64,000 bases of DNA, taken from assembly GCA_963735115.1 (NCBI GenBank), contig CAVTJR010000003.1, positions 1,528,884-1,592,883 on the forward strand, given 5' to 3'. The DNA is from an uncultured Actinomycetota bacterium (lineage in GTDB: Bacteria; Actinomycetota; Acidimicrobiia; Acidimicrobiales; Bog-793). The position numbers and the translations under genes are program-made. Positions within the stretch are counted from its first letter, which is position 1. Every line of letters starts with the position of its first letter. The notes under the pieces were generated by a model. The model searched no databases. It was not told the DNA's origin and saw nothing but the letters and a program-made list of their open reading frames with translations. This document shows, piece by piece, positions 9,613 to 34,783 of the stretch.

Positions 9613-11334
9613 ATGCCCCGTCGGGCAACACCGGAGCTTCTCGCCGTAGCTCGGGGTGACGCGCCAGCCGATCTGCTCCTCACGGGCGGGCGTGTCTTCG
9701 TTCCGAGCACGCGCGAGTGGGTACTCACCGACCTGGCCATCTACAAGGGCGTGATTGCCGGGTGGGGACAACGTGAGGCCCTCCAGGTCGTCGACGTCTC
9801 CGGGACGTCGCTGACGCCCGCCTTCATCGACGCCCACATGCACCTCGAGTCCACCAAGCTCTGGGTGGACGAGTTCGTGCGGAGGGTGCTCCCCCACGGC
9901 ACGACCGCCGTGGCGGCCGACCCGCACGAGGTCGCCAACGTCTTCGGCATCCCCGGTGTTGTCGCCTTGGCCGAGGCGGCGGCTGGGCTGCCCTTCACCT
10001 TTGGCATCTGCGCCTCGAGCTGCGTGCCGGCGTCACATTTCGAGAGCCCGGGCGCCGAGCTCGGTCCGGGCGACCTCGCCTCCTTGCTGGACGACCACGG
10101 AGCGATCGGAGTGGCCGAGGTGATGAACTTCCCCGGCGTGGTCAATGGCGACCCCGAGGTGCTGGCCAAGATCGCCGCCGCTGGCAACCGTCGCGTCGAT
10201 GGACACGCTCCCGGTCTGTGTGGTCGCCAGCTCGACGCCTATCTGGCTGCGGGCATCGAGTCGGATCACGAGTGCACGGAGCTCGCCGAGGCCGAGGAGA
10301 AACGTCGCAAGGCCATGTGGATCTTCATCCGCGAAGGTTCGGCGTCGCGCAACCTCAGAGCTCTGATTCCGACCGTGATCCGGCACGGCACGGAGCGCGT
10401 TGCCCTCTGCACCGATGACCGCGAGCCGGACACGCTCCTTCGAGCCGGACACGTGAACGACTGCGTGCGCCTGGCGGTGTCGTGCGGCGTCCCGCTGGAA
10501 GACGCCCTCGTGCTCGCCACGAGCAACCCGGCCGATTACCACCACTTCGACCATCTCGGCTGGCTGGCACCCGGTTACCAGGCCGATGTGCTCTGCTTCG
10601 AGGACCTGGCCGGAGTCGTGCCCGCACGCGTCTGGCAGGCGGGCCGCCTCGTGGCCGCCGACGGTGCCGTCGTCGACGGGGCCGTTCCTTCCCGGCCGGC
10701 GCCCGACTTCATGCGCGCCTCGGTCCATCTCGATCCTCCACCGACGGCGGCGGATCTGGACCGCCGCCCACCCGAAGGTGGGCTGGCGCGTGTCATCGGG
10801 ATCGAGGAGCACTCGCTCACGACCCGCCAGCTCATCCTCGACGTCACGGACCCGTCGGTGGAGGTCTCCCGCATCGGGGTCGTGGAGCGGCACCGCCGCA
10901 CCGGTCGTGTCGGTCTCGGCTACGTCCACGGTTTCGGTCTCGCTCGCGGTGCCATCGCCTCGACGGTGGCGCATGACGCCCACAACTGCATGGTCGTGGG
11001 CGCCATCGACGCCACCGGTCCGCCCGACATGGCGGTCGCCGTCGCCAGGCTGGCGGAGATCGGTGGAGGCCAGGTGGCCGTTCTCGACGGCCAAGTGCTC
11101 GCCGAGGTCCCGCTCCCGATCGGTGGCCTCATGAGCGACCTCGACGCAACCACGGTCGCCGTCGAGGTGGAGCGGCTGGCCGAGACGGCCTCGAAGGCGC
11201 TCGGCATCAACATCGCCGCGCCCTTCATGCAACTCAGCTTCCTCGGGCTGTCGGTTCTGCCCGAGCTGAGGATCACCGATCGCGGCATCGTCGATGTGAC
11301 GACCTTCTCTCTGGTCGACGCGGCGGCAGGCTGA
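9613..11334 (+). CDS. ade: Adenine deaminase (AdeC-type, binuclear)
   Basis: FIDAHMHLES, DPHEVANV, AEVMNFPGV, DGHAP, SDHE, REGS, CTDD, STVAHDAHN; AGGAGG RBS. Confidence 0.95.
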   Translation: MPRRATPELLAVARGDAPADLLLTGGRVFVPSTREWVLTDLAIYKGVIAGWGQREALQVVDVSGTSLTPAFIDAHMHLESTKLWVDEFVRRVLPHGTTAVAADPHEVANVFGIPGVVALAEAAAGLPFTFGICASSCVPASHFESPGAELGPGDLASLLDDHGAIGVAEVMNFPGVVNGDPEVLAKIAAAGNRRVDGHAPGLCGRQLDAYLAAGIESDHECTELAEAEEKRRKAMWIFIREGSASRNLRALIPTVIRHGTERVALCTDDREPDTLLRAGHVNDCVRLAVSCGVPLEDALVLATSNPADYHHFDHLGWLAPGYQADVLCFEDLAGVVPARVWQAGRLVAADGAVVDGAVPSRPAPDFMRASVHLDPPPTAADLDRRPPEGGLARVIGIEEHSLTTRQLILDVTDPSVEVSRIGVVERHRRTGRVGLGYVHGFGLARGAIASTVAHDAHNCMVVGAIDATGPPDMAVAVARLAEIGGGQVAVLDGQVLAEVPLPIGGLMSDLDATTVAVEVERLAETASKALGINIAAPFMQLSFLGLSVLPELRITDRGIVDVTTFSLVDAAAG

Positions 11335-11337: not shown

Positions 11338-12219
11338 GTGGCGGTCCTTGTGCCTCGTTCGCTAGACGAGGCATTCGCCATGCTCGAGCGGTCCCCCGAG
11401 GCCGAGCTGCTGGCAGGCGGCACGGACTTCATGGTGGAGGTGAACGCCGGCCTCCGGCGACCCTCCGCCGTGCTCTGTCTTGGACGCATACCCGAGATCG
11501 CCGGCTGGCGACGGGAGGACGGGCACGTGGTGCTCGGCGCCGGTCTGACCTACACCGAGATGATGGAGCCGGAGCTGGCCGGTCTCGTACCCGGGCTCGC
11601 CCGCGCCGCACGGACCGTCGGCTCGCCTCAGATCCGCAACGCCGGCACCGTCGGCGGCAACCTCGGCACCGCCTCCCCGGCCGGTGACTCGCTGCCGTTG
11701 CTGGCCGCCCTCGAGGCCACCGTCGTCGTCGGCCATCTCGCAGGCACGAGGCGCACGCTTTCCTTGAGCCAGCTCCTGACCGGCCCGAAGAGGACGTCAC
11801 TCGAGCCGGGCGAGATCATCCTCGAGGTGCGAGTGCCCGCCAATTTCGGCACGCAGGAGTTCTTGAAGGTAGGCACGAGAAACGCCATGGTCATCGCCGT
11901 CGCCAGCGTGGCGGTCGTCGTCGACTGGGTCGGCCACGGTGTGCGGATCGCCCTCGGTTCCGCTGGACCGGTTGTGATCCGGGCGACCGACGCCGAGGAG
12001 CTGGCGGAGTCGAGAATCGACTGGGAGGAGCGACGCCTCGCAGCCGGCGAGGACGACCTGAGCGATTTCGTCGACCTTGTTCGGGCTGCGGCGCGCCCGA
12101 TCGACGACCACCGCTCGACCGCCCAGTACCGCCGGCATGCCGTCGGGGTATGCGCCGAGCGCGCCCTGCGCCGGGCATTCCAGGGCGATGATCGCAAGGA
12201 AGAGCCATGGAGCAGCTGA
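11338..12219 (+). CDS. pucC: Xanthine dehydrogenase FAD-binding subunit
   Basis: PRSLDEA, LAGGTDFMVEVN, VGSPQIRNAGTVGGNLGTASPAGD, KVGTRNAMVIA, PIDDHRSTAQYR. Confidence 0.9.
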   Translation: MAVLVPRSLDEAFAMLERSPEAELLAGGTDFMVEVNAGLRRPSAVLCLGRIPEIAGWRREDGHVVLGAGLTYTEMMEPELAGLVPGLARAARTVGSPQIRNAGTVGGNLGTASPAGDSLPLLAALEATVVVGHLAGTRRTLSLSQLLTGPKRTSLEPGEIILEVRVPANFGTQEFLKVGTRNAMVIAVASVAVVVDWVGHGVRIALGSAGPVVIRATDAEELAESRIDWEERRLAAGEDDLSDFVDLVRAAARPIDDHRSTAQYRRHAVGVCAERALRRAFQGDDRKEEPWSS

Positions 12220-12707
12220 GCACTGAGGGATCCCTCCTCAGCTACACGCTTCGCGTGAACGGCCGCGACCGGCCGGTCAGCGATGCGCTCATCGAAGAGA
12301 ACCTCCTCTACGTCTTGCGGGAGCGGCTCGGCCTTCGCGGGTCGAAGAACGCCTGCGAGCAGGGCGAGTGCGGGGCGTGCTCGGTGATCCTCGACGGCAG
12401 GCTGGAGTGCGCCTGCACGGTGCTCGCCGCCAGCGCCGTCGGTCGAGAGGTCGTCACGGTGGAGGGTCTCACGCCTGACGGCGACGGGCTCTCGGACCTG
12501 CAGGAAGCCTTCCTCGCCGAGGGGGCCGTCCAGTGCGGCTTTTGCACTCCGGGACTTGTCGTGAGCGTGCACGACCTCCTTTCGCGCAACCCTCACCCGA
12601 CCGAACTCGAGATTCGCGAGGCCATCTCCGGCAACCTCTGCCGCTGCACCGGCTACGGCCGCATACTTGCGGCTGTGAAGGTGGCCGAGGAGATGCACCA
12701 GCCATGA
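12207..12707 (+). CDS. pucE: Xanthine dehydrogenase [2Fe-2S] subunit
   Basis: KNACEQGECGACSV, QCGFCTPG, GNLCRCTGY. Confidence 0.92.
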   Translation: MEQLSTEGSLLSYTLRVNGRDRPVSDALIEENLLYVLRERLGLRGSKNACEQGECGACSVILDGRLECACTVLAASAVGREVVTVEGLTPDGDGLSDLQEAFLAEGAVQCGFCTPGLVVSVHDLLSRNPHPTELEIREAISGNLCRCTGYGRILAAVKVAEEMHQP

Positions 12708-15064
12708 CCACCCTCGACACGCTCGCCGAAGCCGAGACGACCGATCGCACGGCGCAGGGCCTCGGAACGAGCGCCCGCCGGCCGGACGGGCGACCCAAGG
12801 TCCGGGGGCAGTTCGCCTTCTCGTCCGATCTCGAGGCGAAGGACATGCTCTGGGGCCAGCTGCTGCGTTCTCCCCACCCGTCGGCGACCATCCGCCACAT
12901 CGACGTGTCGGGCGCGTGGCGTATCCCCGGAGTCGTGTCCGTCCTCACTGCGGACGACGTGCCCGGCCGCAGCAGCTATGGACTCGACTACCCCGACCAA
13001 CCGGTCTTCGCCTCAGACGTCGCGCGCTACGCCGGAGAGCCCGTGGCGGCGGTGGCGGCTGACCACCCCGTGACGGCGCGACGTGCCGCCGAGGCCATCG
13101 TCGTCGACTACGAGGTGCGCGAGCCGCTCACCGACTCCGAGGCGGCCCTCACGGCCGAGCCGATCCACCCGCTCGGCAACGAGCTCTACCGTCAGACGAT
13201 CCGCCGGGGTGACCCTGCCGCCACTGGCGTCGTCTCGGTCGAGGGCCACTACGAGACCGGCATGCAAGACCAGGCCTTCATGGGGCCTGAATCGGGCCTG
13301 GCCGTTCCGGCGGCCGATGGCGGCGTCGACCTGTACATCGCCACACAGTGGCTGCACGTCGACCAGGACCAGATCGCCGCCTGCCTCGGCTTGCCCCTCG
13401 ACCTCGTGCGCGTTCACCTCGCCGGTGTCGGCGGGGCCTTCGGCGCCCGTGAGGACCTGAGCATGCAGGTGCAGCTCTGCCTGCTGGCGTTGCGCTCGGG
13501 CCGGCCGGTGAAGATCGTCTACTCGCGGGAGGAGTCCTTCCACGGCCATGTCCATCGGCATCCAGCGCGAATGTGGTACCGGCACACGGCCGATGCCACC
13601 GGCCGACTCGTAAGTGTCGAAGCCCGTATCCTCTTCGACGGCGGCGCCTACCTCTCGTCGTCAACGGCCGTGACGCTGAACGCCGCCTGCTTCGCCAACG
13701 GCCCCTACAAGGTGCCCAACGCCTTCGTCGACTGCACGGCGGTGCGCACGAACAACCCTCCATGCGGCGCCATGCGCGGCTTCGGCGCGGTCCAGGTGTG
13801 CTTCGCCCACGAGGCCCAGATGGACAAGCTCGCCGCTGCCCTTTCGATCGACCCAGTCGAACTGCGACTCTTGAACGCCTATGCGCCGGGAGACGAACTC
13901 ATCATCGGACAGGTGCTGACGGGGACGGCGCCGGTCGCCGAAGTCATCCGGGCGTGCGCGGCCGCCCCGCTGCCTCCCGGAAGTCCGGACACGGTGCCCG
14001 AGCTCGCCCTTCCCGGGGGTGCCGGCCGGACGGCCGAACGGCGGCGGGTGCGACGCGGGGTGGGTTTCGCTGTCGGGTTCAAGAACCTCATGTTCTCCGC
14101 TGGCTTCGACGATTACTCGACGGCGCGTTGCCGCCTCGAGGACGGTCAGGTGACGATCACGACCGCCGCTGTCGAGGTGGGACAGGGCCTCGTCACACTG
14201 ATACAGCAGATCGCCCGTGATGTGCTCGGAGTCGACGAGGTCGCCCTCGGAGAAGCTGCGACGGTTGGCATCGGCTCGGCAGGCTCCACCTCGGCGAGCC
14301 GCCAGAGCTGGATGACGGGGGGCGCGGTCGACAGCGCCTGCAGGACGGTCCGCGAGCGACTCCTCTCCTCCATCGCCCAGCGCTTCGAGGTGCCGCGTGC
14401 CGGTCTCGAGCTCGCCTCCGGCCGGGTCGTCTCCGCCGACGGTTCGTTCAACGTCTCCCTGTCCGAGGCTGCCGCCGGAGAGGTCCTCGAGGAGACGGCC
14501 GTCTTCCGCCACCCTGGGACAGCTGAGCTCGACGAGAACGGCCAGGGCGACGCCCATGTCTCGTTCGCTTTCGCCGCTCATCGGGCCGTCGTCGACGTCG
14601 ACCTCGACCTCGGTCTCGTCAAGGTCGTCGAAGTTGCCACTGTCCAGGACGTCGGTCGCGTCCTCAACCCCGTGCAGCTCCTCGGCCAGCTCGAGGGCGG
14701 CATCTCCCAGGGCGTGGGTTTCGCCGTGATGGAAGAGATCGTCCTCGACAAGGGGAAGGTGCGCAACCCTTCGTTCACCGACTACATCATCCCGACGGCG
14801 CTCGATATGCCACCGGTGAGAGTCGAGGCCCTCATCGAGCAGCCCGAGCCGGGCTCGCCTCTCGGTGCCAAGGGCGCCGGCGAGCCGCCGTCGATCTCGT
14901 CCACCGCCGCCGTCGTGGCGGCCATCCGCAACGCCACGGGTCTCGAGCTGGCACGAACCCCGGTGCGGCCGCAGGACATCGCCCTCGCCCTCGCCGGGCA
15001 ACCGTCCGAAGGGGCCGGCGAGGCCCCCGCCACCCCCTCGCCCGCAAAGGAGGCCATGCCATGA
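12704..15064 (+). CDS. pucD: Xanthine dehydrogenase molybdenum-binding subunit
   Basis: ATGA-coupled to the 2Fe-2S gene. [50 protein letters not shown]. Confidence 0.92.
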
Positions 15065-16065
15065 CAACGCCCGTCGCTGTCTACCTGCAGGACGCCCATC
15101 CCATCCGTCAGGGGATGGAGATCGCCAAGTACGCCGAGTCGAAGGGCTTCCACGCCGTCTGGCAAGCCGAGAGCCGCCTCGTGAGGGAGGCGACTGTGCC
15201 GATGGCGGCGTTTCTGTCCGTCACCGAGCGGATCAAGGTCGGCTCCGGCGTGGTCAACAACTGGACCCGCAACCCGGCCCTCCTCGCCTCGACGTTCTCC
15301 ACCCTCGATGACCTCGCCCCCGGGCGCGTCATCCTCGGGATCGGGGCCTGGTGGGAACCACTTGCCAGCAAGGTCGGCATCAAGCGGGAGAAGCCGCTGC
15401 GCGCCATGCGCGAGACCGTGGAGGCCGTCCGCGCCCTGCTCACCGACAAGAACGTCACCTACGAGGGAGAGTTCGTCCACCTCGACGGTGTCGAGCTCGA
15501 TTACGTCTACCAGGAGCGGCGAGCAAAGGACGTGCCCATCTACATCGGCGCCACGGGGATGCAGATGATGGAGCTCGCCGGCGAGATCGGCGACGGTGTC
15601 GTGCTCAACTACCTCGTCTCGCCCGCCTACAACGACCGAGCCCTCGAGCACCTCGAGGTGGGTGCGCAGCGGGCAGGGCGCTCGGCCAGCGACATCGACA
15701 GGCCGCAGCTCGTCGTCTGCTCGCTCGACGAGGACCGCGAGGCGGCCCTCGATGCGGCCCGCATGCTCGTGACGCAATACCTCGGCCAGCAACCCCACAT
15801 CATGAAGGCCTCGGGCGTGCCCCAGTCGCTCCTCGACAAGATCGGCGAGGTGCTGACGTGGCCGGCGACCCACGAGCAGGTGGAGGCCGCCTCGAAACTC
15901 GTCCCGGACGAGATCGTGCAGATGCTGACGGCCTCGGGAACCGCCTCGGAGTGCCGGGCGCAGGTGGCCGAGTACGTGAGGCGGGGTTGCACCTGCCCGG
16001 TGCTCTACCCGCTCGGCCGGGATGTGCACGCCATGATCGACGCCTTCGCGGACTGGACCGCCTGA
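15061..16065 (+). CDS. Luciferase-like (LLM) oxidoreductase, Mer-like, probably F420-dependent
   Basis: ATGA overlap with the pucD stop. [17 protein letters not shown]...[23 protein letters not shown]...LAGEIGDG. Confidence 0.85.
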
Positions 16066-16231: not shown

Positions 16232-16792
16232 ATGACCACACTGAAGAACCGGCCGAACACCGCCCTCCTCGTCGTCGACGTGCAGAACAGCGTCGTGGAG
16301 GGGGCTCACGAACGTGAGGCGGTCGTCGCCAACGTCGGCCGCCTGGTCGACAAGGCGCGGCGGGAGGGCGTGCCCGTTGTCTGGGTGCAGCACTCCGACG
16401 AGCACCTCGCCAAGGGGAGCGACGAATGGCGGATCGTCCCCGAGCTCACCCCGCAGGACGCCGAGCCGCTCGTCGAGAAGTCCTACGGCGACTCCTTCGA
16501 GGACACCAACCTCGAGAACGTGCTCTCCGGCCTCGGTGTCGGGCGGCTCGTCGTCGCCGGCGCACAAACCGACGCTTGCATCCGCTCGACCCTCCATGGG
16601 GCGCTCGTGCGGGGCTACGACACCACCCTCGTGAGCGACGCCCACACGACGGAGGACCAGACGGAATGGGGGGCGCCTCCCCCGGAGCAGGTCATCGCCC
16701 ACACGAACCTCTACTGGACCTACGAGACGGCGCCGGGCAGGACGGGCGGGACGGTCGAGACGAAGGACGTCGACTTCGCCGGGACGGCCTGA
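16232..16792 (+). CDS. Cysteine hydrolase / isochorismatase family amidase
   Basis: ALLVVDVQN (Asp), VEKSYGDSF (Lys), GAQTDACIRST (Cys), SDAHTT. Confidence 0.9.
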   Translation: MTTLKNRPNTALLVVDVQNSVVEGAHEREAVVANVGRLVDKARREGVPVVWVQHSDEHLAKGSDEWRIVPELTPQDAEPLVEKSYGDSFEDTNLENVLSGLGVGRLVVAGAQTDACIRSTLHGALVRGYDTTLVSDAHTTEDQTEWGAPPPEQVIAHTNLYWTYETAPGRTGGTVETKDVDFAGTA

Positions 16793-16868: not shown

Positions 16869-17891
16869 TCAGAGGCGGGCGAAGAGCCGAGCCGCCTGCT
16901 CGCGGGCGCGTGCTCGGATCTCGGCCGGATCGACCCTCGTGGGCTGGCCGTCGCGCAGGACGGCCTCTCCGTCCACGACGACCTCGAGCGGGCGCACGCC
17001 GGGCGTGAAGGCGAGGTGCCAGGCGTCCATCGGCTCGTAGCTCCAGCGCACGCGGTCGTCACGCGCCTCTGGCACGAGCTCGTAACCGCCCTCCAGCCAG
17101 GACCAAGCCGCCGACGGTGCGGCCGTCACGTCGTCTTCCCGATGGCGGGCATACGCGACTCGGAACTCCTCGAGCATGTCGGCCCCGATGCCGTCGGTGC
17201 CGAGAGCCACAGTGCCCTCCCACCGAGCGGGACGGCCGTAGCCGACGGCGTTGTTCATGTTCGAGCGTGGGTTGTGTGCCACGGTGCCCCGAAGCGGTCG
17301 GTCGAGGTGCACGCAGTGGGCGAGCAGCCAATTGTCAGCCGCCACCGCCTCCAGCCGTCCGCCTGCGGCGGCGTCGACACGGTCCTCCGACACATGGATG
17401 TGCACGCCGGCCCCGAGGTCGGTAGCGAGTCCCACGACCTCCTCGAGCGTCGCTTCCGAGAGCGTGAAGCACGCATGGGCACCAACGAAACCTCGTCCGC
17501 CGCCTTTCAAGAAACGCTCGTTCTCCGCCAGTCCTGCCCTCGTTCCCGCTGCACCGTTGCGGTCCGTGACCTCGTAGCAGCACAGCGACCGCACGCCCAC
17601 CTCTGCACAGGCCTCGGCGATGACGTCGAGCGAACCCTCGATGGCGTTCGGCGAGGAATGATGATCGACGATGGCCGTGGTGCCGCCTTCGAGCGCCTCC
17701 AGCGCCCCCAGCAACGCCGACCAGCGGATCATGTCGAGGTCGAGGGCGCAGTCGAGCCGCCACCACACGAGCTCGAGGATCTCGGGGAAGTCCCTGGGCA
17801 CTCGCGGTGGCGGCGGCATCCCCCGGGCGAGGGCGGAGTACAGGTGGTGGTGTGCACAGACGAGCCCCGGCGTCTCCTCACCGGGCGTCAT
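16869..17891 (-). CDS. ssnA: SsnA-like metal-dependent amidohydrolase
   Basis: PGLVCAHHHLYSALARG, EILELVWWRLD, GTTAIVDHH, GAHACFT, HIHVSE, HNPRSNMNN, LGTDGIG. Start 17891 lies just after the upstream Mo-enzyme stop. Confidence 0.8.
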   Translation of the reverse strand: MTPGEETPGLVCAHHHLYSALARGMPPPPRVPRDFPEILELVWWRLDCALDLDMIRWSALLGALEALEGGTTAIVDHHSSPNAIEGSLDVIAEACAEVGVRSLCCYEVTDRNGAAGTRAGLAENERFLKGGGRGFVGAHACFTLSEATLEEVVGLATDLGAGVHIHVSEDRVDAAAGGRLEAVAADNWLLAHCVHLDRPLRGTVAHNPRSNMNNAVGYGRPARWEGTVALGTDGIGADMLEEFRVAYARHREDDVTAAPSAAWSWLEGGYELVPEARDDRVRWSYEPMDAWHLAFTPGVRPLEVVVDGEAVLRDGQPTRVDPAEIRARAREQAARLFARL

Positions 17892-17895: not shown

Positions 17896-20499
17896 TCATT
17901 CCTCGGACGAACCGGCTGAGGCGGCCACCGCCCGTCGCATGGGAAGCGTGTCCCTCCATTCGCCGTCGAGATCGTGCAACGCAGTCGCCACGGCTCCCGC
18001 CGTCGGGACGAGGCCGATCTCCCCCATCCCCTTGATGCCATACGGGCTTCGCGGCTGAGGCACCTCGACGAGGACCGCTTCGATGGGCGGGACATCCTTC
18101 GCTCGCAGGATGCCAAGACCCCGGAGCGTCATGTGCGTCGGGCGTCCGTCCTCGTCGGCAGGGAACTCCTCCGACAAGGCGTACCCGAGCCCCATGTGAA
18201 CGGCACCCTCGATCTGCCCTTCGCAGAGCATCGGGTTGACGGCGCGGCCGACGTCGTGAACGGCCACCACCTTCTCGATCTGGCTCGTCTCGCGATCGAT
18301 CGTCACGAGCTGGGCGGCATAGGAGAAGGCCGAGTGGATGATCGGGTTCTCCACCCCCTCGTCGAGAGAGTTCGTCCAGTCGACGCGGTACTCGCCCTCG
18401 TAGTCGACGCCCGGCTTGCATCCGTCCTCGATCGCCCGCTGGCAGGCGGCCGCGATGGCGCCCGCCCCCATCAGCGTGCCGCGGGAGCCGGTCGTCTGGC
18501 CTGCTCCGAGCTCGCGGGTCGTGTCCACGACGACCCGAACCCGCCCGGGGTCCAAGCCGAGCTCCTCGACGGCAACCTGCTGCGCGACGGTGTGGATTCC
18601 CTGTCCCATCTCCGTCCAGCAGTGGCGTACCTCGACGTCGCCGCTCTCGTCGAAACGCACGACTGCCCGCACGATCTCGAGGAACCCGTTGCCGAGGCCG
18701 GAGTTCTTCAGCCCGAGGCCGAGGCCGACGGCCTTGCCGGCCGCCACGGCGGCGTCGTAGGCAGGCTCGACGGCATCGAGGCAGGCGAGGGCGCCGAGGC
18801 AGCCGTCGTCCATCACCTGCCCCGGCCCCCAGACACATCCCGGACGGATGGCGTTGCGGCGGCGCATCTCGAGACCCGAGATTCCCACCTTCTCGGCCAA
18901 GCGGTCCATGACGCCTTCCATGGCGAACTGGGCCTGATTCGCACCAAAACCGCGGAAGGCGCCGCACACGGGGTTGTTCGTCCGCACCGCCAGGGCCTCG
19001 ACGTCGATCGCCGGCAGCACGTACGGGCCGGAGGCATGGCCGGCCGCCCTCTCGAGCACCTTCATGCCGACGGAGGCGTACGGCCCGGAATCGCCGATCA
19101 TGCGCGCCTTCAATGCGGTCAGCATCCCGTCGGCATCGCAGCCTGCCCAGTACTCGAGGCGGATCGGGTGACGCTTGGGATGGAGGAGGAAGGACTCCTC
19201 ACGCGACAACGTGCATTTCACCGGTCGCCCGAGCAGGAAGGCCGCCAGAGCAGTCTGCGCCTGGTTCGACATGTCCTCTTTCCCGCCAAAGGCTCCGCCG
19301 TTCGAGACCAGCTCGACGACGACCTGGGTTTCGGGGACGGCCAGGACGGAGGCGATCTGGTCGCGGTCGTCCCAAACCCCCTGCCCACCGGAATAGACCG
19401 TCAAGGTGCCGTCAGCTTGTGGCACGGCAAGGGTCGACTCGGGCTCGAGGAAGGCGTGCTCCACGCGCTGGGTCTGGAACACCTCGTGCAGGCGATGCTC
19501 CGAAGCGGCCAAGGCGGCCTCCACGTCGCCCCGCTGATAGGCGGAGCGGGAGAGGACGTTGCCGTCGAGCTCCCAGACGGCGTCCTCCGGGTCGTCGATC
19601 GCCGCCACGGCGTCGGTGAGCGCTCGCAGCGGCCGGTATTCGACATCGACGAGCTTGGCTGCCTCACGCGCCTCTGCGAGCGAGCGAGCGACGACGATGG
19701 CGAGGACGTCGCCGAGATAGGCGGTGCGCCCGCCCTCCGGGATGAAGACGGGCCAGTCGGTGTAGATGATGCCGACTCGGAGCTTGCCCGGTACGTCGGC
19801 TGCGGTGAACACGGCCTCCACGCCCGGCGCCGCCAGCGCCGGGCCGGTGTCGATGCGAACGATGTCGGCTCGGGCGTGGTCGGCCAGCCGGAGCGCCCCA
19901 TGGAGCATGCCGGGGACGCGCAGGTCGTCCACGTAGGCGCGATCCCCGAGAGCGAGCTGCAGGCTCTCGTACTTCGGGCTGCGAGCGCCTATGCCGTGCT
20001 TCGTGCCGTTCGTACCGTTCGTACCGTCGCCCGCCGCAACGAGAGGGGCCCTCCCGCTGGCGAGGAGCTCGACGGCGTCGAGGATCTTCGTGTAGCCCGT
20101 GCAGCGGCACAGGTGGGCACCGAGGTGGCGGGCGGCGTCCTCTCGGGTCAGCTCCGAGCCCTTCTTGTCGAGCAGCGCCTTCACGCGCACGACGATCCCC
20201 GGCGTGCAGAACCCGCACTGCAGGGCACCCGTGGCGGAGAAGGCGTTGGCGAAGCGCGCCCGCTCGTCCTCATCGAAACCCTCCAGCGTCGTGACGGACT
20301 TGCCGGCGACACGGGCGAGAGAGGTGCTGCAGCTGATCATTGCTTTGCCGTCGATGAGCACCGTGCAGCACCCGCACTGCCCCGACGGCGAGCAGCCATC
20401 CTTCGGCGAGGTGATGTCCAGCTCCTCGCGGAGGGCTGCCAGGAGATTGGGGTGCTCGCCGACCTCGACCAACTTGCCGTTCAACGTGAACTCGGTCAT
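17896..20499 (-). CDS. Fused [2Fe-2S]-molybdopterin hydroxylase (XdhD / Se-dependent xanthine dehydrogenase-like)
   Basis: N-terminal KDGCSPSGQCGCC, QCGFC, HLCRCTGY; then EHAFLEPES, GGAFGGKED, AFRGFG, EMGQG, TTGSRGT, KGMGEIG. Confidence 0.9.
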   Translation of the reverse strand: MTEFTLNGKLVEVGEHPNLLAALREELDITSPKDGCSPSGQCGCCTVLIDGKAMISCSTSLARVAGKSVTTLEGFDEDERARFANAFSATGALQCGFCTPGIVVRVKALLDKKGSELTREDAARHLGAHLCRCTGYTKILDAVELLASGRAPLVAAGDGTNGTNGTKHGIGARSPKYESLQLALGDRAYVDDLRVPGMLHGALRLADHARADIVRIDTGPALAAPGVEAVFTAADVPGKLRVGIIYTDWPVFIPEGGRTAYLGDVLAIVVARSLAEAREAAKLVDVEYRPLRALTDAVAAIDDPEDAVWELDGNVLSRSAYQRGDVEAALAASEHRLHEVFQTQRVEHAFLEPESTLAVPQADGTLTVYSGGQGVWDDRDQIASVLAVPETQVVVELVSNGGAFGGKEDMSNQAQTALAAFLLGRPVKCTLSREESFLLHPKRHPIRLEYWAGCDADGMLTALKARMIGDSGPYASVGMKVLERAAGHASGPYVLPAIDVEALAVRTNNPVCGAFRGFGANQAQFAMEGVMDRLAEKVGISGLEMRRRNAIRPGCVWGPGQVMDDGCLGALACLDAVEPAYDAAVAAGKAVGLGLGLKNSGLGNGFLEIVRAVVRFDESGDVEVRHCWTEMGQGIHTVAQQVAVEELGLDPGRVRVVVDTTRELGAGQTTGSRGTLMGAGAIAAACQRAIEDGCKPGVDYEGEYRVDWTNSLDEGVENPIIHSAFSYAAQLVTIDRETSQIEKVVAVHDVGRAVNPMLCEGQIEGAVHMGLGYALSEEFPADEDGRPTHMTLRGLGILRAKDVPPIEAVLVEVPQPRSPYGIKGMGEIGLVPTAGAVATALHDLDGEWRDTLPMRRAVAASAGSSEE

Positions 20500-20598
20500 G
20501 GCTCCATTCTCCCACTGCCCTGATCGGCGGCGCGCCCCACCTGGCCGGCGCCGAGAAGTGCCTCGTTCCATGATCGCTCGGCCGTGGGCGCCTAGGTA

Positions 20599-20766: not shown

Positions 20767-21996
20767 ATGCCGCCGGAGGGCTCGCAGTCTCGATGGGCGC
20801 AGCGACGCACGAGCTGGGAGCGCTTCCTCCTCAGCTGGTTCGCCCTCCCCGGGTCGCTGCTGGCGGCACTCCTCCTCGGCGCCCTCATGATGGCCGTGCT
20901 CGGCGCCAACCCGCTCACGGGTTACCACGCCCTCTTCGACGGTGCCTTCGTGGGCAGCTACGCCCTCGGCGCTACCGCCGTGAGGGCTGCTCCGCTCCTT
21001 CTCGTCGGGGTCGGAATCTGCATCTCGTTTCGCGCCAGCATGCTCAACATCGGCGGCGAGGGCCAGCTGGCGATGGGCGGCCTCGCCTGCGCGGCGACCG
21101 CCCTCGCCCTCCCGAACCTGCCGAGCATCGTGCTCATCCCCCTCGTGCTCCTCGCCGGCGCGGCCGGCGGGGCCATCTGGGGCGCCATCCCGGGCGCCTT
21201 CAAGGCCTATTTCAACGTCAACGAGATTCTCAGCACGATCATGCTCAACCTCGTCGCCGTGCAGATCATGAACTACCTCTTGGCGGGCCCCATGGTTGAC
21301 AACACCCAGAACTCGACCTATGGCCTCATCCCGGAGACACGGCTCCTCTCCTCCCACTCCTGGCTGCCGATTCTCATCCCCGGAACCCAGCTCCATCTCG
21401 GCGTCGTCATCGCTGTCGTCGTTGCCGGGGGTGCCTACGTGCTGCTTTTTCACACCGGCGTGGGGTTCCGGCTGCGCGCCGTCGGGATCTCGCGCGAAGC
21501 CGCCAATTACGCCGGCATCAAGGTGAAGCGGACGATGGTGTTGGCAATGACCCTCAGCGGGGCGATGTGCGGTCTCGGGGGGGCGATGCTCGTCATCGGG
21601 AGCATCTCGCACAGGATGGTGACCGACGGGAGCCTCACCGGCTTCACCGGCTCTGACGGCTTCAACGGCATCGTCGTGGCTCTCTTCGGCGGGCTCAGCC
21701 CCCTCTGGAGTGTCGTCTCTGCCTTCCTCTTCGGAGGGCTGCTCACCGGCGGCGACGCTCTCCAGGTGGCCACGGGCGTGCCGGCCGACATGGTGACGGC
21801 CCTCGAAGGCCTCGTCGTGGTGTTCGTCGTATCGCTCGAGTACATGAGGCGCCGGGCCCGCACGGCCGCCTTGGCCCCGCCGGTGACGCCCTCGCGCTCA
21901 TCGCGGGCAAAAGACGATGTCCCTCCGCTCGTCGGGGTGGGACGGGCCCCAGGGCTCGGCTCGCACGAGGCCTCCAGGACGGGAGCGTCACCGTGA
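20767..21996 (+). CDS. Nucleoside/purine ABC transporter permease (CUT2, BMP-associated)
   Basis: NIGGEGQ, NEILSTIMLN, GFRLRAVG...AANYAGI, GFNGIVVALFG; multiple hydrophobic helices. Confidence 0.9.
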   Translation: MPPEGSQSRWAQRRTSWERFLLSWFALPGSLLAALLLGALMMAVLGANPLTGYHALFDGAFVGSYALGATAVRAAPLLLVGVGICISFRASMLNIGGEGQLAMGGLACAATALALPNLPSIVLIPLVLLAGAAGGAIWGAIPGAFKAYFNVNEILSTIMLNLVAVQIMNYLLAGPMVDNTQNSTYGLIPETRLLSSHSWLPILIPGTQLHLGVVIAVVVAGGAYVLLFHTGVGFRLRAVGISREAANYAGIKVKRTMVLAMTLSGAMCGLGGAMLVIGSISHRMVTDGSLTGFTGSDGFNGIVVALFGGLSPLWSVVSAFLFGGLLTGGDALQVATGVPADMVTALEGLVVVFVVSLEYMRRRARTAALAPPVTPSRSSRAKDDVPPLVGVGRAPGLGSHEASRTGASP

Positions 21997-22925
21997 GCCA
22001 CTTCTTCACCTACGCCGTCCTCACCTCCACGGTGGCCGCCGCCATCGCCCTCGCCAGCCCGTTCCTGCTGGCCTCCCTCGGCGAGACGATGGGCCAGCGA
22101 AGCGGCGTCATCAACCTCGGTGTCGACGGGATCATGCTGCTGTCGGCCTTCTCGACCTACTTCGTGGCCCTCAAGACGGGCAGCCTCCTGTTCGGGGTCC
22201 TCGCCGGCGTCGGGGTCGGGATGGTGATGGGCGTCATCACCGCCTTCATCTCTGTCACCTTGAAAGCCGAACAGGGCATCAGCGGCATCGGGATCTACCT
22301 CTTCGGCCTCGGCTTCAGTGATCTGCTGTTCATCAAGCTCGTGGGCACACCGCTGCCCATCAACGAGCTGACTCCGATCGGCATCCCCCTGCTCGACCGC
22401 ATCCCCGCTGTCGGGAACATGCTGTTCAAGCAGACGATCCTCGTCTACCTGGCCTTCCTGCTCGTCCCCGTGTTCGCCTTCGTGCTGAACCGCACGACCT
22501 ACGGCCTCAAGATCCGCGCCTGCGGGGAGAACCCGGCCGCCGCCGACACCGTCGGCATCAGCGTGGCGCGCATCCGTTGGTCGACCGTGCTCATCGGCTG
22601 CACGATGGCGGGTCTGGCGGGCGCCGCCTTGCTCCTCTACGACGGGATCTTCATGGAGAACCTCACGCAGAGCGAGGGGTTCATCGCCGTGGCGCTCGTG
22701 TACTTCGGTGCCTGGCGCCCCCTCGGCGTCATGGGCGGCTCCGTCCTCTACGGGTTCACGATCGCCGTCGTCCTCGAGTGGAAGTCGCTCGGCATCATCC
22801 CGCTCAGCGCCTCCGATCTCGCCGCCACGGCTCCGGCCGTCATCACGATCCTGGCCTTGTTGCTGGTGGCTCGCCGCTTCCGGCAGCCCGCCGTCCTCGG
22901 CAAGCCCTACGAGAGAGGAGGTTGA
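21993..22925 (+). CDS. Nucleoside/purine ABC transporter permease 2
   Basis: SGVINLGVDG, GLKIRACGENPAAADTVGISV, GFIAVALVYFGAWRP, LGKPYER. Confidence 0.9.
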   Translation: MSHFFTYAVLTSTVAAAIALASPFLLASLGETMGQRSGVINLGVDGIMLLSAFSTYFVALKTGSLLFGVLAGVGVGMVMGVITAFISVTLKAEQGISGIGIYLFGLGFSDLLFIKLVGTPLPINELTPIGIPLLDRIPAVGNMLFKQTILVYLAFLLVPVFAFVLNRTTYGLKIRACGENPAAADTVGISVARIRWSTVLIGCTMAGLAGAALLLYDGIFMENLTQSEGFIAVALVYFGAWRPLGVMGGSVLYGFTIAVVLEWKSLGIIPLSASDLAATAPAVITILALLLVARRFRQPAVLGKPYERGG

Positions 22926-23027
22926 TGCCCCCCGCACGTGTCTTCCCATCTACTCGGGGCCGGCCGCCCCTGCGGTCGCCCACCTCGACACATTCAGTTC
23001 AGTCCGAACCCTAAGAAAGGAATGACA

Positions 23028-24047
23028 ATGCATGCACATCTGACCAAGAAGGTCGGCGTGCTGCTCGTCGCAATCGGTGTGGCCCTCGGCCTGGCCGCCT
23101 GCGGGAGCACCGCCTCGACCAGCACGACCACCACCAAAGCCTCTTCATCTGCGCCAAAGGTGTTCAAGGTGGCTCTGATCGCTCCGAGTGCCACCAACGA
23201 CCTGGCGTTCACGGAGTCGATGTACAACGCCCTCGAGGGCCTCAAGACGACTGAGAACCTGCAAATCTCGGTCTCGGCCAACGAATTCATCGTGGCAGAC
23301 GCCGCCAACATCATCCGCGAGTACGCCTCGGAGGGGTACAACCTCGTGATCGCGCACGGATCCCAGTACGGCTCGACAATCGAGCAGCTGGCTCCGCAGT
23401 TCCCGAAGGTGTCGTTCGCCTGGGGCACGGCCGGCTCGACGTTCGGCTTGCCGAACGTCTTTGCCTACGAGGCCAGCTCGAACGAAGGCGGCTACGTGCA
23501 GGGGTACATGGCAGCGCTGTTGAGCAAGTCGCACGTGCTCGGAGTCATCGGGCCGATCGCGACGGGCGATGCCAAGCTGTACGTTGACGGCTTCGTCGCC
23601 GGGGCCAAAGCGGCCGATCCGACGATCACCGACCACCCCGTGTACACGGGCTCCTTCAGTGACGACAGCCTGATGGCCACGGCCGCCAAGACGTTCGTCT
23701 CCGACGGTGCTGATGTCCTCACGGGCAGCTCGCAGTCGGTCGTGGGAGCCATCGGTGTCGCTCGCGCTGACCACCTCCCCTGGTTCAGCACGCAGTGGAG
23801 CCAGGCGACCCTGGCGCCGAGCAACGTCGTGTCGGCGCAGGTCTACAACTGGACGCCCGTCCTCACCCAGATGATCACGGAGATCCGTTCGGGCAAGCTC
23901 GGCGACGCCACGTACGTCATCGGGCTCGGCAACGGCGGTGAGCAGATCGTCTTCAACCCGGGCTACAAGCTCCCGGCATCGGTGAAGGCCAAGGCGCAGA
24001 AGCTCATCACCGACATCACCAACGGGTCCCTCACGGTTCCTCAGTGA
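23028..24047 (+). CDS. BMP family (PnrA/Med-like) purine nucleoside-binding lipoprotein
   Basis: Signal peptide with lipobox LAAC, Thr/Ser linker, GYNLVIAHGSQY, EGGYVQGYMAA; AAAGGA RBS. Confidence 0.88.
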   Translation: MHAHLTKKVGVLLVAIGVALGLAACGSTASTSTTTTKASSSAPKVFKVALIAPSATNDLAFTESMYNALEGLKTTENLQISVSANEFIVADAANIIREYASEGYNLVIAHGSQYGSTIEQLAPQFPKVSFAWGTAGSTFGLPNVFAYEASSNEGGYVQGYMAALLSKSHVLGVIGPIATGDAKLYVDGFVAGAKAADPTITDHPVYTGSFSDDSLMATAAKTFVSDGADVLTGSSQSVVGAIGVARADHLPWFSTQWSQATLAPSNVVSAQVYNWTPVLTQMITEIRSGKLGDATYVIGLGNGGEQIVFNPGYKLPASVKAKAQKLITDITNGSLTVPQ

Positions 24048-25696
24048 TCGCAGGAAGCGACGGTACGGAGGCCACAGTGGCAACCACGAGCAACAGCCCT
24101 ACGGCTACCGCTACCGCGACCGCCCATCCGGAGGAGGCAGTACCGCTCCTCCGGATGAGCAGCATCACCAAGCGCTTCCCCGGCGTGCTCGCCAACGACG
24201 ACGTGGACTTCGATGTCCGAGCCGGCGAGGTCCACACGCTCTTCGGAGAGAACGGCGCCGGCAAGAGCACGCTCATGCGCATCCTCTACGGCCTCTACCG
24301 CCCCGACTCGGGCGAGATCCGCGTCCACGGCGAGGCCGTCCAGATCTCCTCGCCGGCCGCCGCCATCCGCCATGGCATCGGCATGATCCACCAGCACTTC
24401 ATGCTCGTGAACACCTTGACCGTGGTCGAGAACGTCGCCCTCGGGCTGAAATCGTCCCGCGGTCCGCTCACGGACCTCGGCAAGGTCTCGGTACGCCTCG
24501 AGGAGCTCGCCGAGCGGCACGGGCTCGAGGTCGACCCTCATGCCCTTATCTGGCAGCTCTCGGTCGGCGAGCGCCAGCGCGTCGAGATCCTGAAGGCGCT
24601 CTACCGCGACGTCGGTCTCCTCGTCCTCGACGAGCCGACTGCCGTGCTCACCCCGAACGAGGTCGACGATCTCTTCCGGGTCCTCCGCCAGCTTGCCGCG
24701 AGCGGACGAGGGCTCGTGTTCATCTCCCACAAGGTGAACGAAGTGCTCGAGATCTCCGACCGCATCACCGTCCTTCGCGCCGGCAAGCGCATCGGCACGG
24801 TCTCCAGGGCGGAAGCCTCACAAAGCCGGCTCGTCGAGATGATGGTGGGGCACGACCTGTCCGCCGATGTGCGACCGACGGCCGCCGCTGCAGGCGAGAG
24901 ACGTCTCGTCGTGCGCGACCTCACGGTGAAGGGAGACCGCGGGCAGGACGCCGTACGCGGGCTCGATCTCGAAGTCGACGCCGGCGAGATCGTCGGGATC
25001 GCCGGAGTGTCAGGCAACGGCCAGCGTGAGTTCGCCGAGTCGGTCGCCGGCATTCGTGCCCCTACGAGCGGCTCGATCCTCCTCGGCGGGAGCGAGGTAG
25101 CCGGCGCCCCGCCTGCCCAGGTGCGGGCTGCCGGGCTTGCTTATGTCCCCGAGGAGCGCATGCGCGACGGCATCGTTGCAGATTTCACCGTCGCCGAGAA
25201 CCTCATGCTCGTGGACAACAACAAGCCGAGCTTCTCCCGGCTCGGGTTTCTCCGCAGCCGCGTGATCAAGCGACACTGCCAGGAGCTCGTCGACGCCTTC
25301 GACGTGAGAACGCCGAGTCTCGACACGCCGGCACGCAACCTCTCCGGTGGCAACATTCAAAAGCTCATCATGGCCCGGGAGCTATCCGGCCAACCTCGCC
25401 TGCTGCTCGTCGCCCAACCGACGCGGGGGATCGACGTCAGTGCCGCCCAGTACATCCACCGGCGGCTCGTCGAACAGCGCGACGCCGGTACGGCCGTGCT
25501 CATCATCTCCGAGGATCTCGACGAGGTGATGTCGATCTCCGATCGCATCCTCGTGATGTACGAGGGCCGGATCATCGGCTCCGCCGACCCGCGCACGAGT
25601 ACGCGTGAAGCCATCGGCCTCATGATGGCCGGCATCGAAGCCGAGCAGTCGGAGGAGGCTGCGGCCGCTGTCGAGCCGGTGAGCGTCGATCGCTGA
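24044..25696 (+). CDS. ABC transporter ATP-binding protein, double ATPase domain
   Basis: GENGAGKST, LSVGERQRVEI, LDEPT, GVSGNGQ, LSGGNIQK, AQPTRGID. Start uncertain. Confidence 0.93.
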   Translation: MIAGSDGTEATVATTSNSPTATATATAHPEEAVPLLRMSSITKRFPGVLANDDVDFDVRAGEVHTLFGENGAGKSTLMRILYGLYRPDSGEIRVHGEAVQISSPAAAIRHGIGMIHQHFMLVNTLTVVENVALGLKSSRGPLTDLGKVSVRLEELAERHGLEVDPHALIWQLSVGERQRVEILKALYRDVGLLVLDEPTAVLTPNEVDDLFRVLRQLAASGRGLVFISHKVNEVLEISDRITVLRAGKRIGTVSRAEASQSRLVEMMVGHDLSADVRPTAAAAGERRLVVRDLTVKGDRGQDAVRGLDLEVDAGEIVGIAGVSGNGQREFAESVAGIRAPTSGSILLGGSEVAGAPPAQVRAAGLAYVPEERMRDGIVADFTVAENLMLVDNNKPSFSRLGFLRSRVIKRHCQELVDAFDVRTPSLDTPARNLSGGNIQKLIMARELSGQPRLLLVAQPTRGIDVSAAQYIHRRLVEQRDAGTAVLIISEDLDEVMSISDRILVMYEGRIIGSADPRTSTREAIGLMMAGIEAEQSEEAAAAVEPVSVDR

Positions 25697-25909: not shown

Positions 25910-26863
25910 TCAGCCCGGCACGAAACGCGTGCCCGTCTCGCCTGCGAGGGCCCTCTCGACGTTGGCGGGATCGGTCACGATGGCTTCCGTGCCACCCGCG
26001 TCGAGGTAATTGAGGACGGCCTGGATCTTCGGCGCCATGCTGCCGGCGGCAAAGTGGGTACCCTCCGCCAGGTACGCCCTCGCCTCGGATGCGGTCAAGC
26101 GGTCCACGAAACGCTGCTCCGGTCGTCCGAAGCTGAGCGCCACCTGCTCGACCGCCGTCGAGATGAGGAGGAGGTCGGCGCCAAGGTTGGTGGCCAGCAG
26201 CGCCGAAGCGAGGTCCTTGTCGATGACGGCCGCGACCCCCTCGAGATCGCCGTCCTCTTTGCAGACAACCGGAATGCCGCCCCCGCCGGCGGTGACCACG
26301 ACGATGCCGGCCTCGACGAGCGTGCGGATGGCAGGCATCTCGACGATCCGCACCGGAGTGGGAGAGGCGACGACGCGGCGCCAACCGCGGTTGGCATCTT
26401 CGATGAGCTCCCAGCCCTGCTGCCGTCGGCGCTCTGCCATCGCCTCGTCCATGAACGACCCGATCGGCTTGCTCGGATGGCTGAAGGCAGGGTCGTCGGC
26501 TCTCACCTCCACCTGGCAGATGACGGTGGCTGCGTTGCGATCCATGCCGAAGCGGCGGAACTCGTTGCAGAGGTTCTGCTGCAGGGCATATCCGATGGCA
26601 CCTTGCGTGTCGGCCCCGCACACGTCGAGGGGAACCTCGTGCAGCTCGCTCGCCGCCAGCTCGGAACGTCGCAGGATGAAGCCGACCTGGGGCCCGTTGC
26701 CGTGGGCGATGACGACGTTCCAGCCGGCGCGGATCATCCCGACGATGTGGTGGCAGGTTTCTTTGGCGGCGATGTACTGATCTTGCACCGATTCGTGCTG
26801 CTTGTCCTTGATGAGTGAGTTGCCACCGATGGCGACGACGGCCGTGCGGCTCGCTGTGTCCAT
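25910..26863 (-). CDS. arcC: Carbamate kinase (ArcC/YqeA)
   Basis: VVAIGGNSL, HGNGPQVG, ADTQGAIGY, KPIGSF, WRRVVASP, GGGGIPV, AVIDKD, GSMAPK. Confidence 0.96.
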   Translation of the reverse strand: MDTASRTAVVAIGGNSLIKDKQHESVQDQYIAAKETCHHIVGMIRAGWNVVIAHGNGPQVGFILRRSELAASELHEVPLDVCGADTQGAIGYALQQNLCNEFRRFGMDRNAATVICQVEVRADDPAFSHPSKPIGSFMDEAMAERRRQQGWELIEDANRGWRRVVASPTPVRIVEMPAIRTLVEAGIVVVTAGGGGIPVVCKEDGDLEGVAAVIDKDLASALLATNLGADLLLISTAVEQVALSFGRPEQRFVDRLTASEARAYLAEGTHFAAGSMAPKIQAVLNYLDAGGTEAIVTDPANVERALAGETGTRFVPG

Positions 26864-28852: not shown

Positions 28853-28935
28853 GATTGTCGCCCTCGGCGCGCCGATACAGTTGCCTGGCCAGCACGGACG
28901 GCTGGGCGCAGCGACGAATCGGAAGGACGCCATCG

Positions 28936-32000: not shown

Positions 32001-32105
32001 GCCGCCGGACCCGGCCGTCTCGCCTGCACCGCCCGGAAGCGGGCCGCCGCGGGCCACGGGCGGCGCGCTGGCATACGAAGAGGTCTCACGACCACGATCC
32101 GCTGC

Positions 32106-33407: not shown

Positions 33408-33427
33408 GTGGACCTCCGGGTGCTCGA

Positions 33428-34779: not shown

Positions 34780-34783
<4 letters not shown>
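33428..34783 (-). CDS. Fold-type II PLP enzyme, threonine synthase-like, with N-terminal Cys motif
   Basis: CRGC...[15 protein letters not shown] (PLP Lys), [40 protein letters not shown]. Confidence 0.85.

Follow-up and report, generated by a model that had tools for sequence, protein, structure and literature searches.

A predicted Mer-like F420 reductase in a purine gene island of an uncultured acidimicrobial bacterium

We analyzed a 64,000-nucleotide stretch of the genome of an uncultured member of the Acidimicrobiales (Actinomycetota; contig CAVTJR010000003.1), hereafter the window. A gene of the luciferase-like monooxygenase superfamily (hereafter LLM) lies there directly behind genes for adenine deaminase and a xanthine dehydrogenase. 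It is an open reading frame (ORF) of 334 amino acids in high-GC DNA (15061-16065, + strand). The original prediction, made from the sequence of the window, took it to be an F420-dependent purine ring reductase standing in for YgfK, the protein that reduces the purine ring in the reductive urate route.

The LLM gene, its operon and its family

The genes and signals of the operon are as follows.

9613..11334, + strand: adenine deaminase, first operon gene (TIGR01178, 497 bits vs. a cut-off of 472.5)
11338..12219, + strand: PucC/XdhB-like FAD subunit of xanthine dehydrogenase (PF00941, PF03450; NF043083 164 bits, below cut-off)
12207..12707, + strand: PucE/XdhC-like 2Fe-2S subunit of xanthine dehydrogenase (PF01799; NF043084 158 bits, below cut-off)
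12704..15064, + strand: PucD molybdopterin subunit (TIGR03196, 824 bits vs. a cut-off of 783.65)
15047..15064, + strand: Shine-Dalgarno sequence and ATGA overlap (read from sequence)
15061..16065, + strand: LLM-family Mer-like gene, proposed F420H2-dependent 2,8-dioxopurine reductase (PF00296; F420 LLM families first in NCBIfam)

The start codon of LLM (ATG, 15061-15063) overlaps the pucD stop codon (TGA, 15062-15064), forming an ATGA at 15061-15064, and a Shine-Dalgarno sequence (AAGGAGG, 15047-15053) is located 7 nt 5' of the start. The pucE/pucD junction is an ATGA overlap as well (12704-12707). Coordinates and family matches thus bear out the original prediction that LLM overlaps the pucD stop behind ade-pucC-pucE-pucD. 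Its description of LLM as the last gene holds for the gene order, and the end of the operon at this point is likely. A gap of 166 bases separates LLM from the isochorismatase-family gene that starts at 16232, and no site resembling a terminator was seen in 15900-17000. Homologs of 82%-92% identity, labelled Acidimicrobiales or Acidimicrobiaceae, occupy the best 120 database matches, and 101 of the 334 positions are invariant across the window LLM and 79 orthologs; hence, the gene is real.

LLM belongs to the superfamily by its match to PF00296 (Bac_luciferase; residues 11-311, E 9.9e-72, 242.4 bits vs. a cut-off of 27.9). F420-dependent LLM families ranked on top among its NCBIfam matches, none over the cut-off. 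The best two were models of methylene-tetrahydromethanopterin reductase, Mer (PRK02271, 196 bits, cut-off 276; TIGR03555, 186 bits, cut-off 348.7), so that "Mer-like", the term used in the original prediction, stands as a description of resemblance but not of membership. Matches to flavin mononucleotide (FMN) types reached 52.8 bits at best (MupA type), followed by SsuD at 46.7 bits (TIGR03565, cut-off 518.2), and RutA was not among the 25 best families. At E ≤1e-10, 11 chains in the PDB matched by sequence. Ten of these are named Mer, F420 alcohol dehydrogenase, the glucose-6-phosphate dehydrogenase dependent on F420 (FGD), or F420 hydroxymycolate dehydrogenase. In the remaining one, 9hav, the chain is named "Luciferase family protein" and the entry is titled as an F420-dependent G6P dehydrogenase, and none of the matches at this threshold was an FMN enzyme. 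The nearest PDB relative by sequence was Mer (E 3.5e-42; PDB 1z69, 8qpl).

The AlphaFold2 model of LLM (pLDDT 93.7) has the alternating strand and helix elements of a TIM barrel. When this model was used in Foldseek, ranks 1-24 were all F420-dependent enzymes (TM 0.84-0.91 for Mer), and FMN enzymes appeared from rank 25 on (TM ≤0.78). LLM is therefore placed in the F420-dependent LLM family and, by its nearest relatives in sequence and predicted fold, in the reductase (Mer) branch of the reductase/dehydrogenase split described by Mascotti 2018 (PMC6279831). A RutA/SsuD-type FMN oxygenase, the alternative named in the original prediction, was rejected as unlikely because NCBIfam, PDB and Foldseek rankings favor F420 enzymes. 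Likewise, sequence and fold point to F420 rather than to the FMN- and O2-dependent activity that the prediction had listed as contrary evidence.

Signature residues set LLM apart from Mer. In jMer, Glu6 is described as catalytic, Asp96 as pterin binding, and Gly61-Val62 as a non-prolyl cis-peptide that forms the F420 backstop (PMC11094777). LLM Gly63-Val64 aligns with jMer Gly61-Val62 and is invariant in 80 sequences (the motif is seen in the sequence; a cis conformation is not sequence-readable). Asp96 of jMer aligns with LLM Trp98. Glu6 falls outside the aligned range and would correspond to LLM Tyr8 when the ungapped register is extended, with which alignment A3 agrees. LLM Asn183 aligns with jMer position 178, which is Asn in the PDB chain and Gln178 in the text of the paper (PMC11094777). 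Tyr8, Gly63-Val64, Trp98, and Asn183 are invariant in 80 orthologs, all of which share a GAWW.P motif. Among 69 search representatives, two pass PRK02271 and none passes TIGR03555, and Glu occupies the Glu6 column in none. The genome that carries the window is 91.7% complete, so that absences from it are to be read as "not found"; a search of it for Mch (PF02289, the sole tetrahydromethanopterin marker searched) gave no match at E ≤0.001. LLM is thus a predicted Mer-like F420 reductase but not a Mer, because it scores below both cut-offs, the Glu and Asp residues are replaced, and no Mch was found; a true Mer was rejected on these grounds.

Gene context and relation to YgfK

In the reductive urate route, XdhD (DOPDH) converts urate to 2,8-dioxopurine, YgfK (UacX in Clostridioides difficile) reduces the ring, SsnA opens it, and HyuA, YgeW/YqeA, YgeY, and YgeX form the end of the route (PMC12507026; bioRxiv 10.1101/2025.04.24.650524). 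We compared the surroundings of LLM in 80 loci (one genome per species, orthologs of 69%-92% identity) by running the window proteins against them with tblastn. The search for these loci used nine closer sequences after a 24-sequence alignment gave no conserved stretch, and the loci are therefore biased to close orthologs (≥69% identity). They are mostly from Acidimicrobiia, with a few records labelled Thermoleophilia, Anaerolineae, Blastocatellia, or Armatimonadota.

In 51/80 loci, LLM comes immediately after ssnA and on its strand, and in 9/80 it comes immediately after the xdhD-like gene. Only four have it directly behind pucD (three by the script rule and L014, where the rule missed the overlap), and 16 have another arrangement. 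The usual order is xdhD-ssnA-LLM, often followed by pucC-pucE-pucD. An ssnA was detected in 63/80 loci, an xdhD-like gene in 63/80, either of the two in 71/80, and pucD in 36/80 (with pucCED often directly after LLM). Seven of the nine loci with neither ssnA nor an xdhD-like gene are cut short on one side; the other two, L081 and L085, have full flanks. In five genomes with the order xdhD-LLM and no ssnA within 10 kb, a short ssnA is located elsewhere in the genome in all five cases. The gene order of the window recurs in no loci but those of its four closest relatives (L014-L017), and its own ssnA-like gene lies 0.8 kb downstream of LLM. Across the family, then, the partner of LLM is the ssnA-like/xdhD-like pair rather than PucD, and the link to pucD is a local rearrangement. 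The coupling to xanthine dehydrogenase claimed in the original prediction is therefore correct for the window but does not extend to the family (4/80 loci), and a partnership with PucD as a family-wide rule was rejected in view of the 60/80 loci with LLM directly behind ssnA or the xdhD-like gene.

To relate LLM to YgfK, we used a sample of 301 Actinomycetota genomes. An LLM ortholog (≥66% identity, one copy each) was present in 20 of them and a match including the YgfK N-domain in 17, and no genome contained both. None of the 20 LLM genomes matched TIGR03315 (YgfK) at E ≤1e-100, while an SsnA-type match at E ≤1e-45 was found in 19. Matches to TIGR03314 (SsnA) formed three groups. Canonical SsnA over the cut-off occurred in 11 genomes, none with LLM and nine with YgfK or its N-terminal part. 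Scores of 320-430 bits occurred in 12 genomes, all with LLM (on the same contig in 11/12). A short type (positions about 57-340, 206-265 bits) was present in 14/301 genomes, seven with LLM and seven without. All seven without LLM (G290, G147, G091, G133, G212, G160, and G238) matched TIGR03315 at E ≤1e-100 over YgfK positions about 5-400 only, and none of these seven YgfK-N genomes is among the records flagged as unpublished. The anti-correlation with ygfK that the original prediction proposed as a check was thus found.

Five LLM-less loci from Acidimicrobiia were fetched (L097-L101, from G133, G091, G160, G290, and G147). A short ssnA and a homolog of E. coli YgfK residues 5-408 (37%-40% identical) were present in all five, with the YgfK N-domain gene directly after ssnA in L097, L098, and L099 and 1.5-3.5 kb away in L100 and L101. 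An xdhD-like gene (69%-74% identical) was upstream in 4/5 and was not detected in L098; in L097 it is about 7 kb upstream, with other DNA between, and the fetched stretch ends within it. YgfK in these LLM-less Acidimicrobiia is reduced to about 400 N-terminal residues, with the GltD-like FAD/NAD(P)H module missing, and L098 and L099 carry an extra small piece resembling YgfK 898-986.

No YgfK N-domain match was found at E ≤1e-20 in five LLM genomes of other lineages (two Anaerolineae, and one each of Blastocatellia, Armatimonadota, and Thermoleophilia), or at E ≤0.001 in the genome of the window, where TIGR03315 matches cover only positions 433-936 (GltD-like, ≤292 bits). E. coli YgfK as a query matched 1/80 LLM loci, in its GltD-like part only, and neither YgfK nor PreA matched within the window. 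This either/or pattern is as expected of a non-orthologous displacement at one pathway step.

A comparable role has already been proposed for Chloroflexota. Li et al. 2025 (Life Metab, PMC12507026) suggested a luciferase-family, F420-dependent yanthine (2,8-dioxopurine) reductase in Chloroflexota SsnA clusters without YgfK or UacX; the available text names only Chloroflexota for this enzyme and, for Actinomycetota, gives just the occurrence of SsnA. The window LLM matches the pattern described there, being a PF00296 gene near SsnA with no YgfK or UacX at the locus. Orthologs of LLM (58%-72% identical) were present in 33 of 201 sampled Chloroflexota genomes (one of the 33 unpublished), of which 31 have an SsnA match of at least 378 bits and two have partial matches; in 14 of the 31, the two genes are within 18 kb on one contig. 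Ten Chloroflexota genomes have SsnA without LLM, two of them with full-length YgfK. The window gene very probably belongs to the same orthologous group as the proteins of Li et al. (PMC12507026).

Two further observations were made in the sampled genomes. A subset of Chloroflexota in which LLM and SsnA are unlinked (LLM 67%-72% identical, SsnA 409-430 bits) is formed by G441, G357, G378, G321, G345, G423, G450, G387, G308, G369, and G414. In G299 (C1:2354543-2355148), only the first 206 LLM residues (67% identical) are present, adjoining SsnA, and this copy may be truncated or decayed.

The central idea is hence already in print as a bioinformatic suggestion, and the present case is not a first sighting; no biochemical study came up in a full-text literature search on F420 in connection with dioxopurine, yanthine, or ssnA. 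The present analysis extends the idea to Actinomycetota and adds a YgfK N-domain displaced from the same operon place, signature residues by which the group can be told from Mer, and a host that respires oxygen. The gain is stronger comparative support and a second phylum.

F420 supply and the wider purine island

The original prediction called for F420 biosynthesis genes, and these are present in the genome of the window. CofE (254 bits), FbiC (CofH part, 469 bits, in an open frame of 778 aa), and CofD (315 bits) are all over their cut-offs, as is Fno (179 bits, cut-off 149.8). FGD was rejected as a source of F420H2, none being over the cut-off, with Fno present instead. CofE was found in 20/20 LLM genomes vs. 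190/301 sampled Actinomycetota. F420 biosynthesis did not tell LLM genomes apart from YgfK-N genomes, as CofE occurs in both groups. The genome also encodes two heme-copper oxidase genes, and no uricase domain was found in it.

Downstream of the operon, the island continues as follows.

16232..16792, + strand: isochorismatase-family hydrolase between LLM and ssnA (PF00857 E 1.5e-38; BiuH/RutB matches weak)
16869..17891, - strand: short SsnA-like amidohydrolase, proposed ring-opening partner (NF005540 265 bits, TIGR03314 249 bits, both below cut-off)
17896..20571, - strand: fused Fe-S and molybdopterin protein of the selenium-dependent xanthine dehydrogenase type, xdhD-like (TIGR03311, 814.6 bits vs. 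a cut-off of 830.45)
20767..25696, + strand: BMP/PnrA-type ABC transporter with two permeases, binding protein, and ATPase (PF02653 twice, PF02608, PF00005)
25910..26863, - strand: carbamate kinase, YqeA-like (NF009007 390 bits, over cut-off; 48% identical to E. coli YqeA)
26867..27844, - strand: carbamoyltransferase, the window's nearest YgeW relative (32% identical to E. coli YgeW, 176 bits; below all NCBIfam cut-offs)
27849..28802, - strand: second carbamoyltransferase, aspartate carbamoyltransferase-like (TIGR00670, 248 bits vs. a cut-off of 236.95)
28855..30654, + strand: Amidohydro_3 protein (PF07969 E 6.7e-25)
30618..32057, - strand: D-hydantoinase/dihydropyrimidinase, HyuA-like (TIGR02033 491 bits, over cut-off; 43% identical to E. 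coli HyuA)
32106..33431, - strand: 8-oxoguanine deaminase (NF006055, 541 bits vs. a cut-off of 532)
33428..36282, - strand: two pyridoxal phosphate (PLP)-dependent (PALP) enzymes (PF00291)

The cluster of the reductive urate (2,8-dioxopurine) route, characterized in 2025, is present here in a variant form. The xdhD-like protein of the island, proposed here for the step from urate to 2,8-dioxopurine, is 24% identical to E. coli XdhD. The short SsnA-like protein (about 340 aa, likely start ATG at 17891) covers about positions 57-340 of the 441-position SsnA model and is 37% identical to E. coli SsnA residues 56-352; an HxH metal motif lies close to its N-terminus. PF07969, the family of the Amidohydro_3 protein, serves as the UacY marker in Li et al. 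(PMC12507026). With E. coli YgeX as the query, no match was found in the genome at E ≤1e-8 and >60 bits, and YgeY gave a single weak match on another contig and none within the window. The two PALP enzymes are possible stand-ins for YgeX; such enzymes adjoin xdhD-ssnA-LLM in L039, L041, L043, L087, L090, L091, and L093. The set of carbamoyltransferases, carbamate kinase, and PALP enzymes hints at a different removal of the two ureido groups and amino groups. Two carbamoyltransferases, a carbamate kinase, and two PALP enzymes also accompany xdhD-ssnA-LLM in loci labelled Thermoleophilia, Actinomycetota, or Actinomycetes.

Several other features were observed in the window and the genome. The open frame of a short YgfM-like FAD-binding ORF (7610-8239, + strand; TIGR03312, 65 bits) does not extend 5' of 7565, so that about 55 model positions at the start are missing, and the ORF may be truncated. 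A second F420-type LLM (42895-43947, - strand; TIGR03559, Rv3520c type, 326 bits vs. a cut-off of 335) adjoins a PLP-dependent decarboxylase (41442-42869). The window starts with the hydrogenase-maturation genes HypF and HypD (13-2379), and a 947-aa protein (3888-6731, - strand) combines PP-binding, AMP-binding, and acyltransferase domains. Elsewhere in the genome, there is a second YgfM-like/XdhD-like pair (G000:C3:722230-726008; L096:5231-9009), with the XdhD-like protein 36% identical to E. coli XdhD vs. 24% for the window copy. Convergent with this pair is an operon (L096:11290-17726) encoding an NAD(P)-binding protein matching PRK12771, a pyruvate:ferredoxin oxidoreductase that appears as two overlapping ORFs (a possible frameshift), and a PRK07565 protein resembling dihydroorotate dehydrogenase (DHOD).

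Proposed route, alternatives and known systems

Taken together, homology and gene context suggest that LLM is an F420H2-dependent oxidoreductase of the Mer-like reductase branch that probably performs the ring-reduction (dearomatization) step of the reductive urate/2,8-dioxopurine pathway. The family, the fold, the gene linkage, the mutual exclusion with YgfK, and the genomic capacity for F420 are direct observations, from which we infer what the substrate is, which way the reaction runs, and that F420 is used. The core of the original prediction, an F420-dependent purine ring reductase in the place of YgfK, is supported, with genes for F420 biosynthesis in the genome, a sequence and fold that point to F420, and YgfK absent from all LLM genomes of the Actinomycetota sample at the threshold used.

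In the proposed route, adenine deaminase and PucCDE would convert adenine and hypoxanthine to urate, and the xdhD-like Fe-S/molybdenum enzyme would remove the 6-oxo group of urate to give 2,8-dioxopurine. LLM would then reduce the pyrimidine ring of 2,8-dioxopurine, lying over the deazaflavin, by hydride transfer from F420H2, and Fno would restore F420H2 at the expense of NADPH. Candidate residues for purine stacking and protonation are Tyr8 and the pair Trp97-Trp98. The short SsnA-like amidohydrolase would open the ring and pull the reaction forward, and the hydantoinase, carbamoyltransferases, and carbamate kinase would complete the route. YgfK is reported to have no detectable activity alone and to be active only when coupled with SsnA, for which unfavorable thermodynamics were suggested, and the two genes co-localize (PMC12507026). 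The tight ssnA-LLM adjacency fits this published need for SsnA coupling.

A number of points weigh against this reading. In the window, LLM is coupled to pucD rather than to ssnA, and for this lineage its role may possibly be tied to the product of PucCDE. The sampled Actinomycetota include related genomes, which are not independent, and unpublished records account for five of the 20 LLM genomes (G018, G120, G174, G239, and G268), leaving 15 without them. An SsnA match at E ≤1e-45 is missing from one LLM genome (G213), and in 10 of the 31 Chloroflexota genomes, LLM and SsnA are on different contigs or, in G345, 178 kb apart, so that co-occurrence there is genome-wide only. The co-occurrence with CofE is weak evidence, because CofE is found in all or nearly all sampled Acidimicrobiia, including the seven YgfK-N genomes, and no canonical FGD is over the cut-off in the genome of the window (best 145.8 bits vs. 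420). Finally, the second XdhD/YgfM-like pair lies about 2 kb from the DHOD-like gene (PRK07565, 445 bits), which might encode a UacX-type reductase.

Among other explanations, an F420H2-dependent reductase of the purine island that acts on another substrate (xanthine, urate, another oxopurine, or a ring-opened intermediate) is unlikely but deserves consideration. LLM is translationally coupled to pucD in the window and L014-L017, the product of PucD expected to be xanthine or urate, and the presence of pucCED in 36/80 loci would suit such a role. It is countered by the retention of an xdhD-like gene of the TIGR03311 type in 63/80 loci (the fused Fe-S/molybdenum cofactor architecture described for the clostridial urate 6-dehydroxylase), by the filling of the same slot with a YgfK N-domain homolog in other genomes, and by the selectivity of YgfK, which among three xanthine isomers converts 2,8-dioxopurine (bioRxiv 10.1101/2025.04.24.650524). 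Much less probable is a redox link, in which LLM would reduce no purine itself but feed or drain electrons of the xdhD-like or PucCDE molybdoenzymes via F420. For the clostridial enzyme, the electron donor is given as unknown (bioRxiv 10.1101/2025.04.24.650524), and the xdhD-like gene has no adjoining FAD subunit in the usual xdhD-ssnA-LLM order. Yet such a link would leave the replacement by a YgfK N-domain unexplained, and the tie to ssnA is tighter than that to xdhD (51 vs. 9 adjacent). Moreover, the characterized F420 LLM enzymes, to our knowledge, pass hydride between F420 and a small substrate and not to a protein Fe-S center.

Slightly more remote again is a monooxygenase dependent on FMN (RutA/SsuD-like or a urate hydroxylase), which would use O2 to open or hydroxylate the purine ring. 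The LLM superfamily includes many FMN oxygenases, and a genome with two heme-copper oxidase genes and no uricase found has a gap that an oxygenase could fill, but the family scores, PDB matches, and fold ranks given above all run the other way, and the genes that accompany LLM, ssnA and xdhD-like, are part of the reductive route (PMC12507026). We regard as least credible a true Mer, or an unrelated function merely sited in the island. Both the highest family score and the closest fold belong to Mer; against this stand scores below both cut-offs, the invariant Trp98 and (by register extension) Tyr8 in place of Asp96 and Glu6, the lack of a Mch match, and a linkage to ssnA/xdhD that holds across several phyla.

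If LLM is indeed the 2,8-dioxopurine reductase, it would be the first F420-dependent purine ring reductase, and dearomatizing purine reduction would be a new class of F420 reaction. The reductive urate pathway, described in 2025 for gut anaerobes, would extend to oxygen-respiring Actinomycetota and to Chloroflexota and could act beyond the gut as a major sink for purines, in organisms where a uricase was not found. Starting from hypoxanthine, the route would be balanced in redox terms, with 4 [H] from PucCDE and 4 [H] used by the xdhD-like enzyme and LLM. For the broader notion of an oxygen-compatible, F420H2-driven 2,8-dioxopurine pathway in aerobic Acidimicrobiia and many Chloroflexota, with a single small LLM displacing YgfK, we see the case as evenly poised. 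LLM and the YgfK N-domain, found at the same operon position, form a ready pair for probing the needs of ring reduction, and a small Fe-S-free enzyme could be easier to use than YgfK for rebuilding the pathway in vitro.

Compared with known systems, LLM is closest to the Chloroflexota reductase of Li et al. (PMC12507026), likewise a PF00296 protein encoded near SsnA without YgfK or UacX and with the same proposed role; both are predicted, and the window differs in that the gene has moved behind pucD. Mer (1z69, 8qpl) is nearest to LLM in sequence and fold and has the Gly-Val backstop motif and a carboxamide residue (LLM Asn183 at jMer 178) in common with it, but jMer Asp96 and, by register extension, Glu6 are replaced by Trp98 and Tyr8, the former within the invariant GAWW.P, and neither Mer-level scores nor Mch were found. 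Ring reduction without YgfK has a further non-orthologous solution in UacX of C. difficile, an FMN reductase resembling PydA (PMC12507026), which belongs to the PF01180 family and is probably ferredoxin dependent; a PreA query matched 0/80 LLM loci. YgfK itself (DOPOR; NAD(P)H:2,8-dioxopurine oxidoreductase of E. coli and C. sporogenes) has the same place in the pathway and, in most relatives, the position that LLM takes beside ssnA, and the two are mutually exclusive. They have no sequence relationship: YgfK is an Fe-S flavoprotein of about 1030 aa that uses NAD(P)H, whereas LLM, a TIM barrel of 334 aa, has no Fe-S motif and is predicted to take F420H2 as donor.

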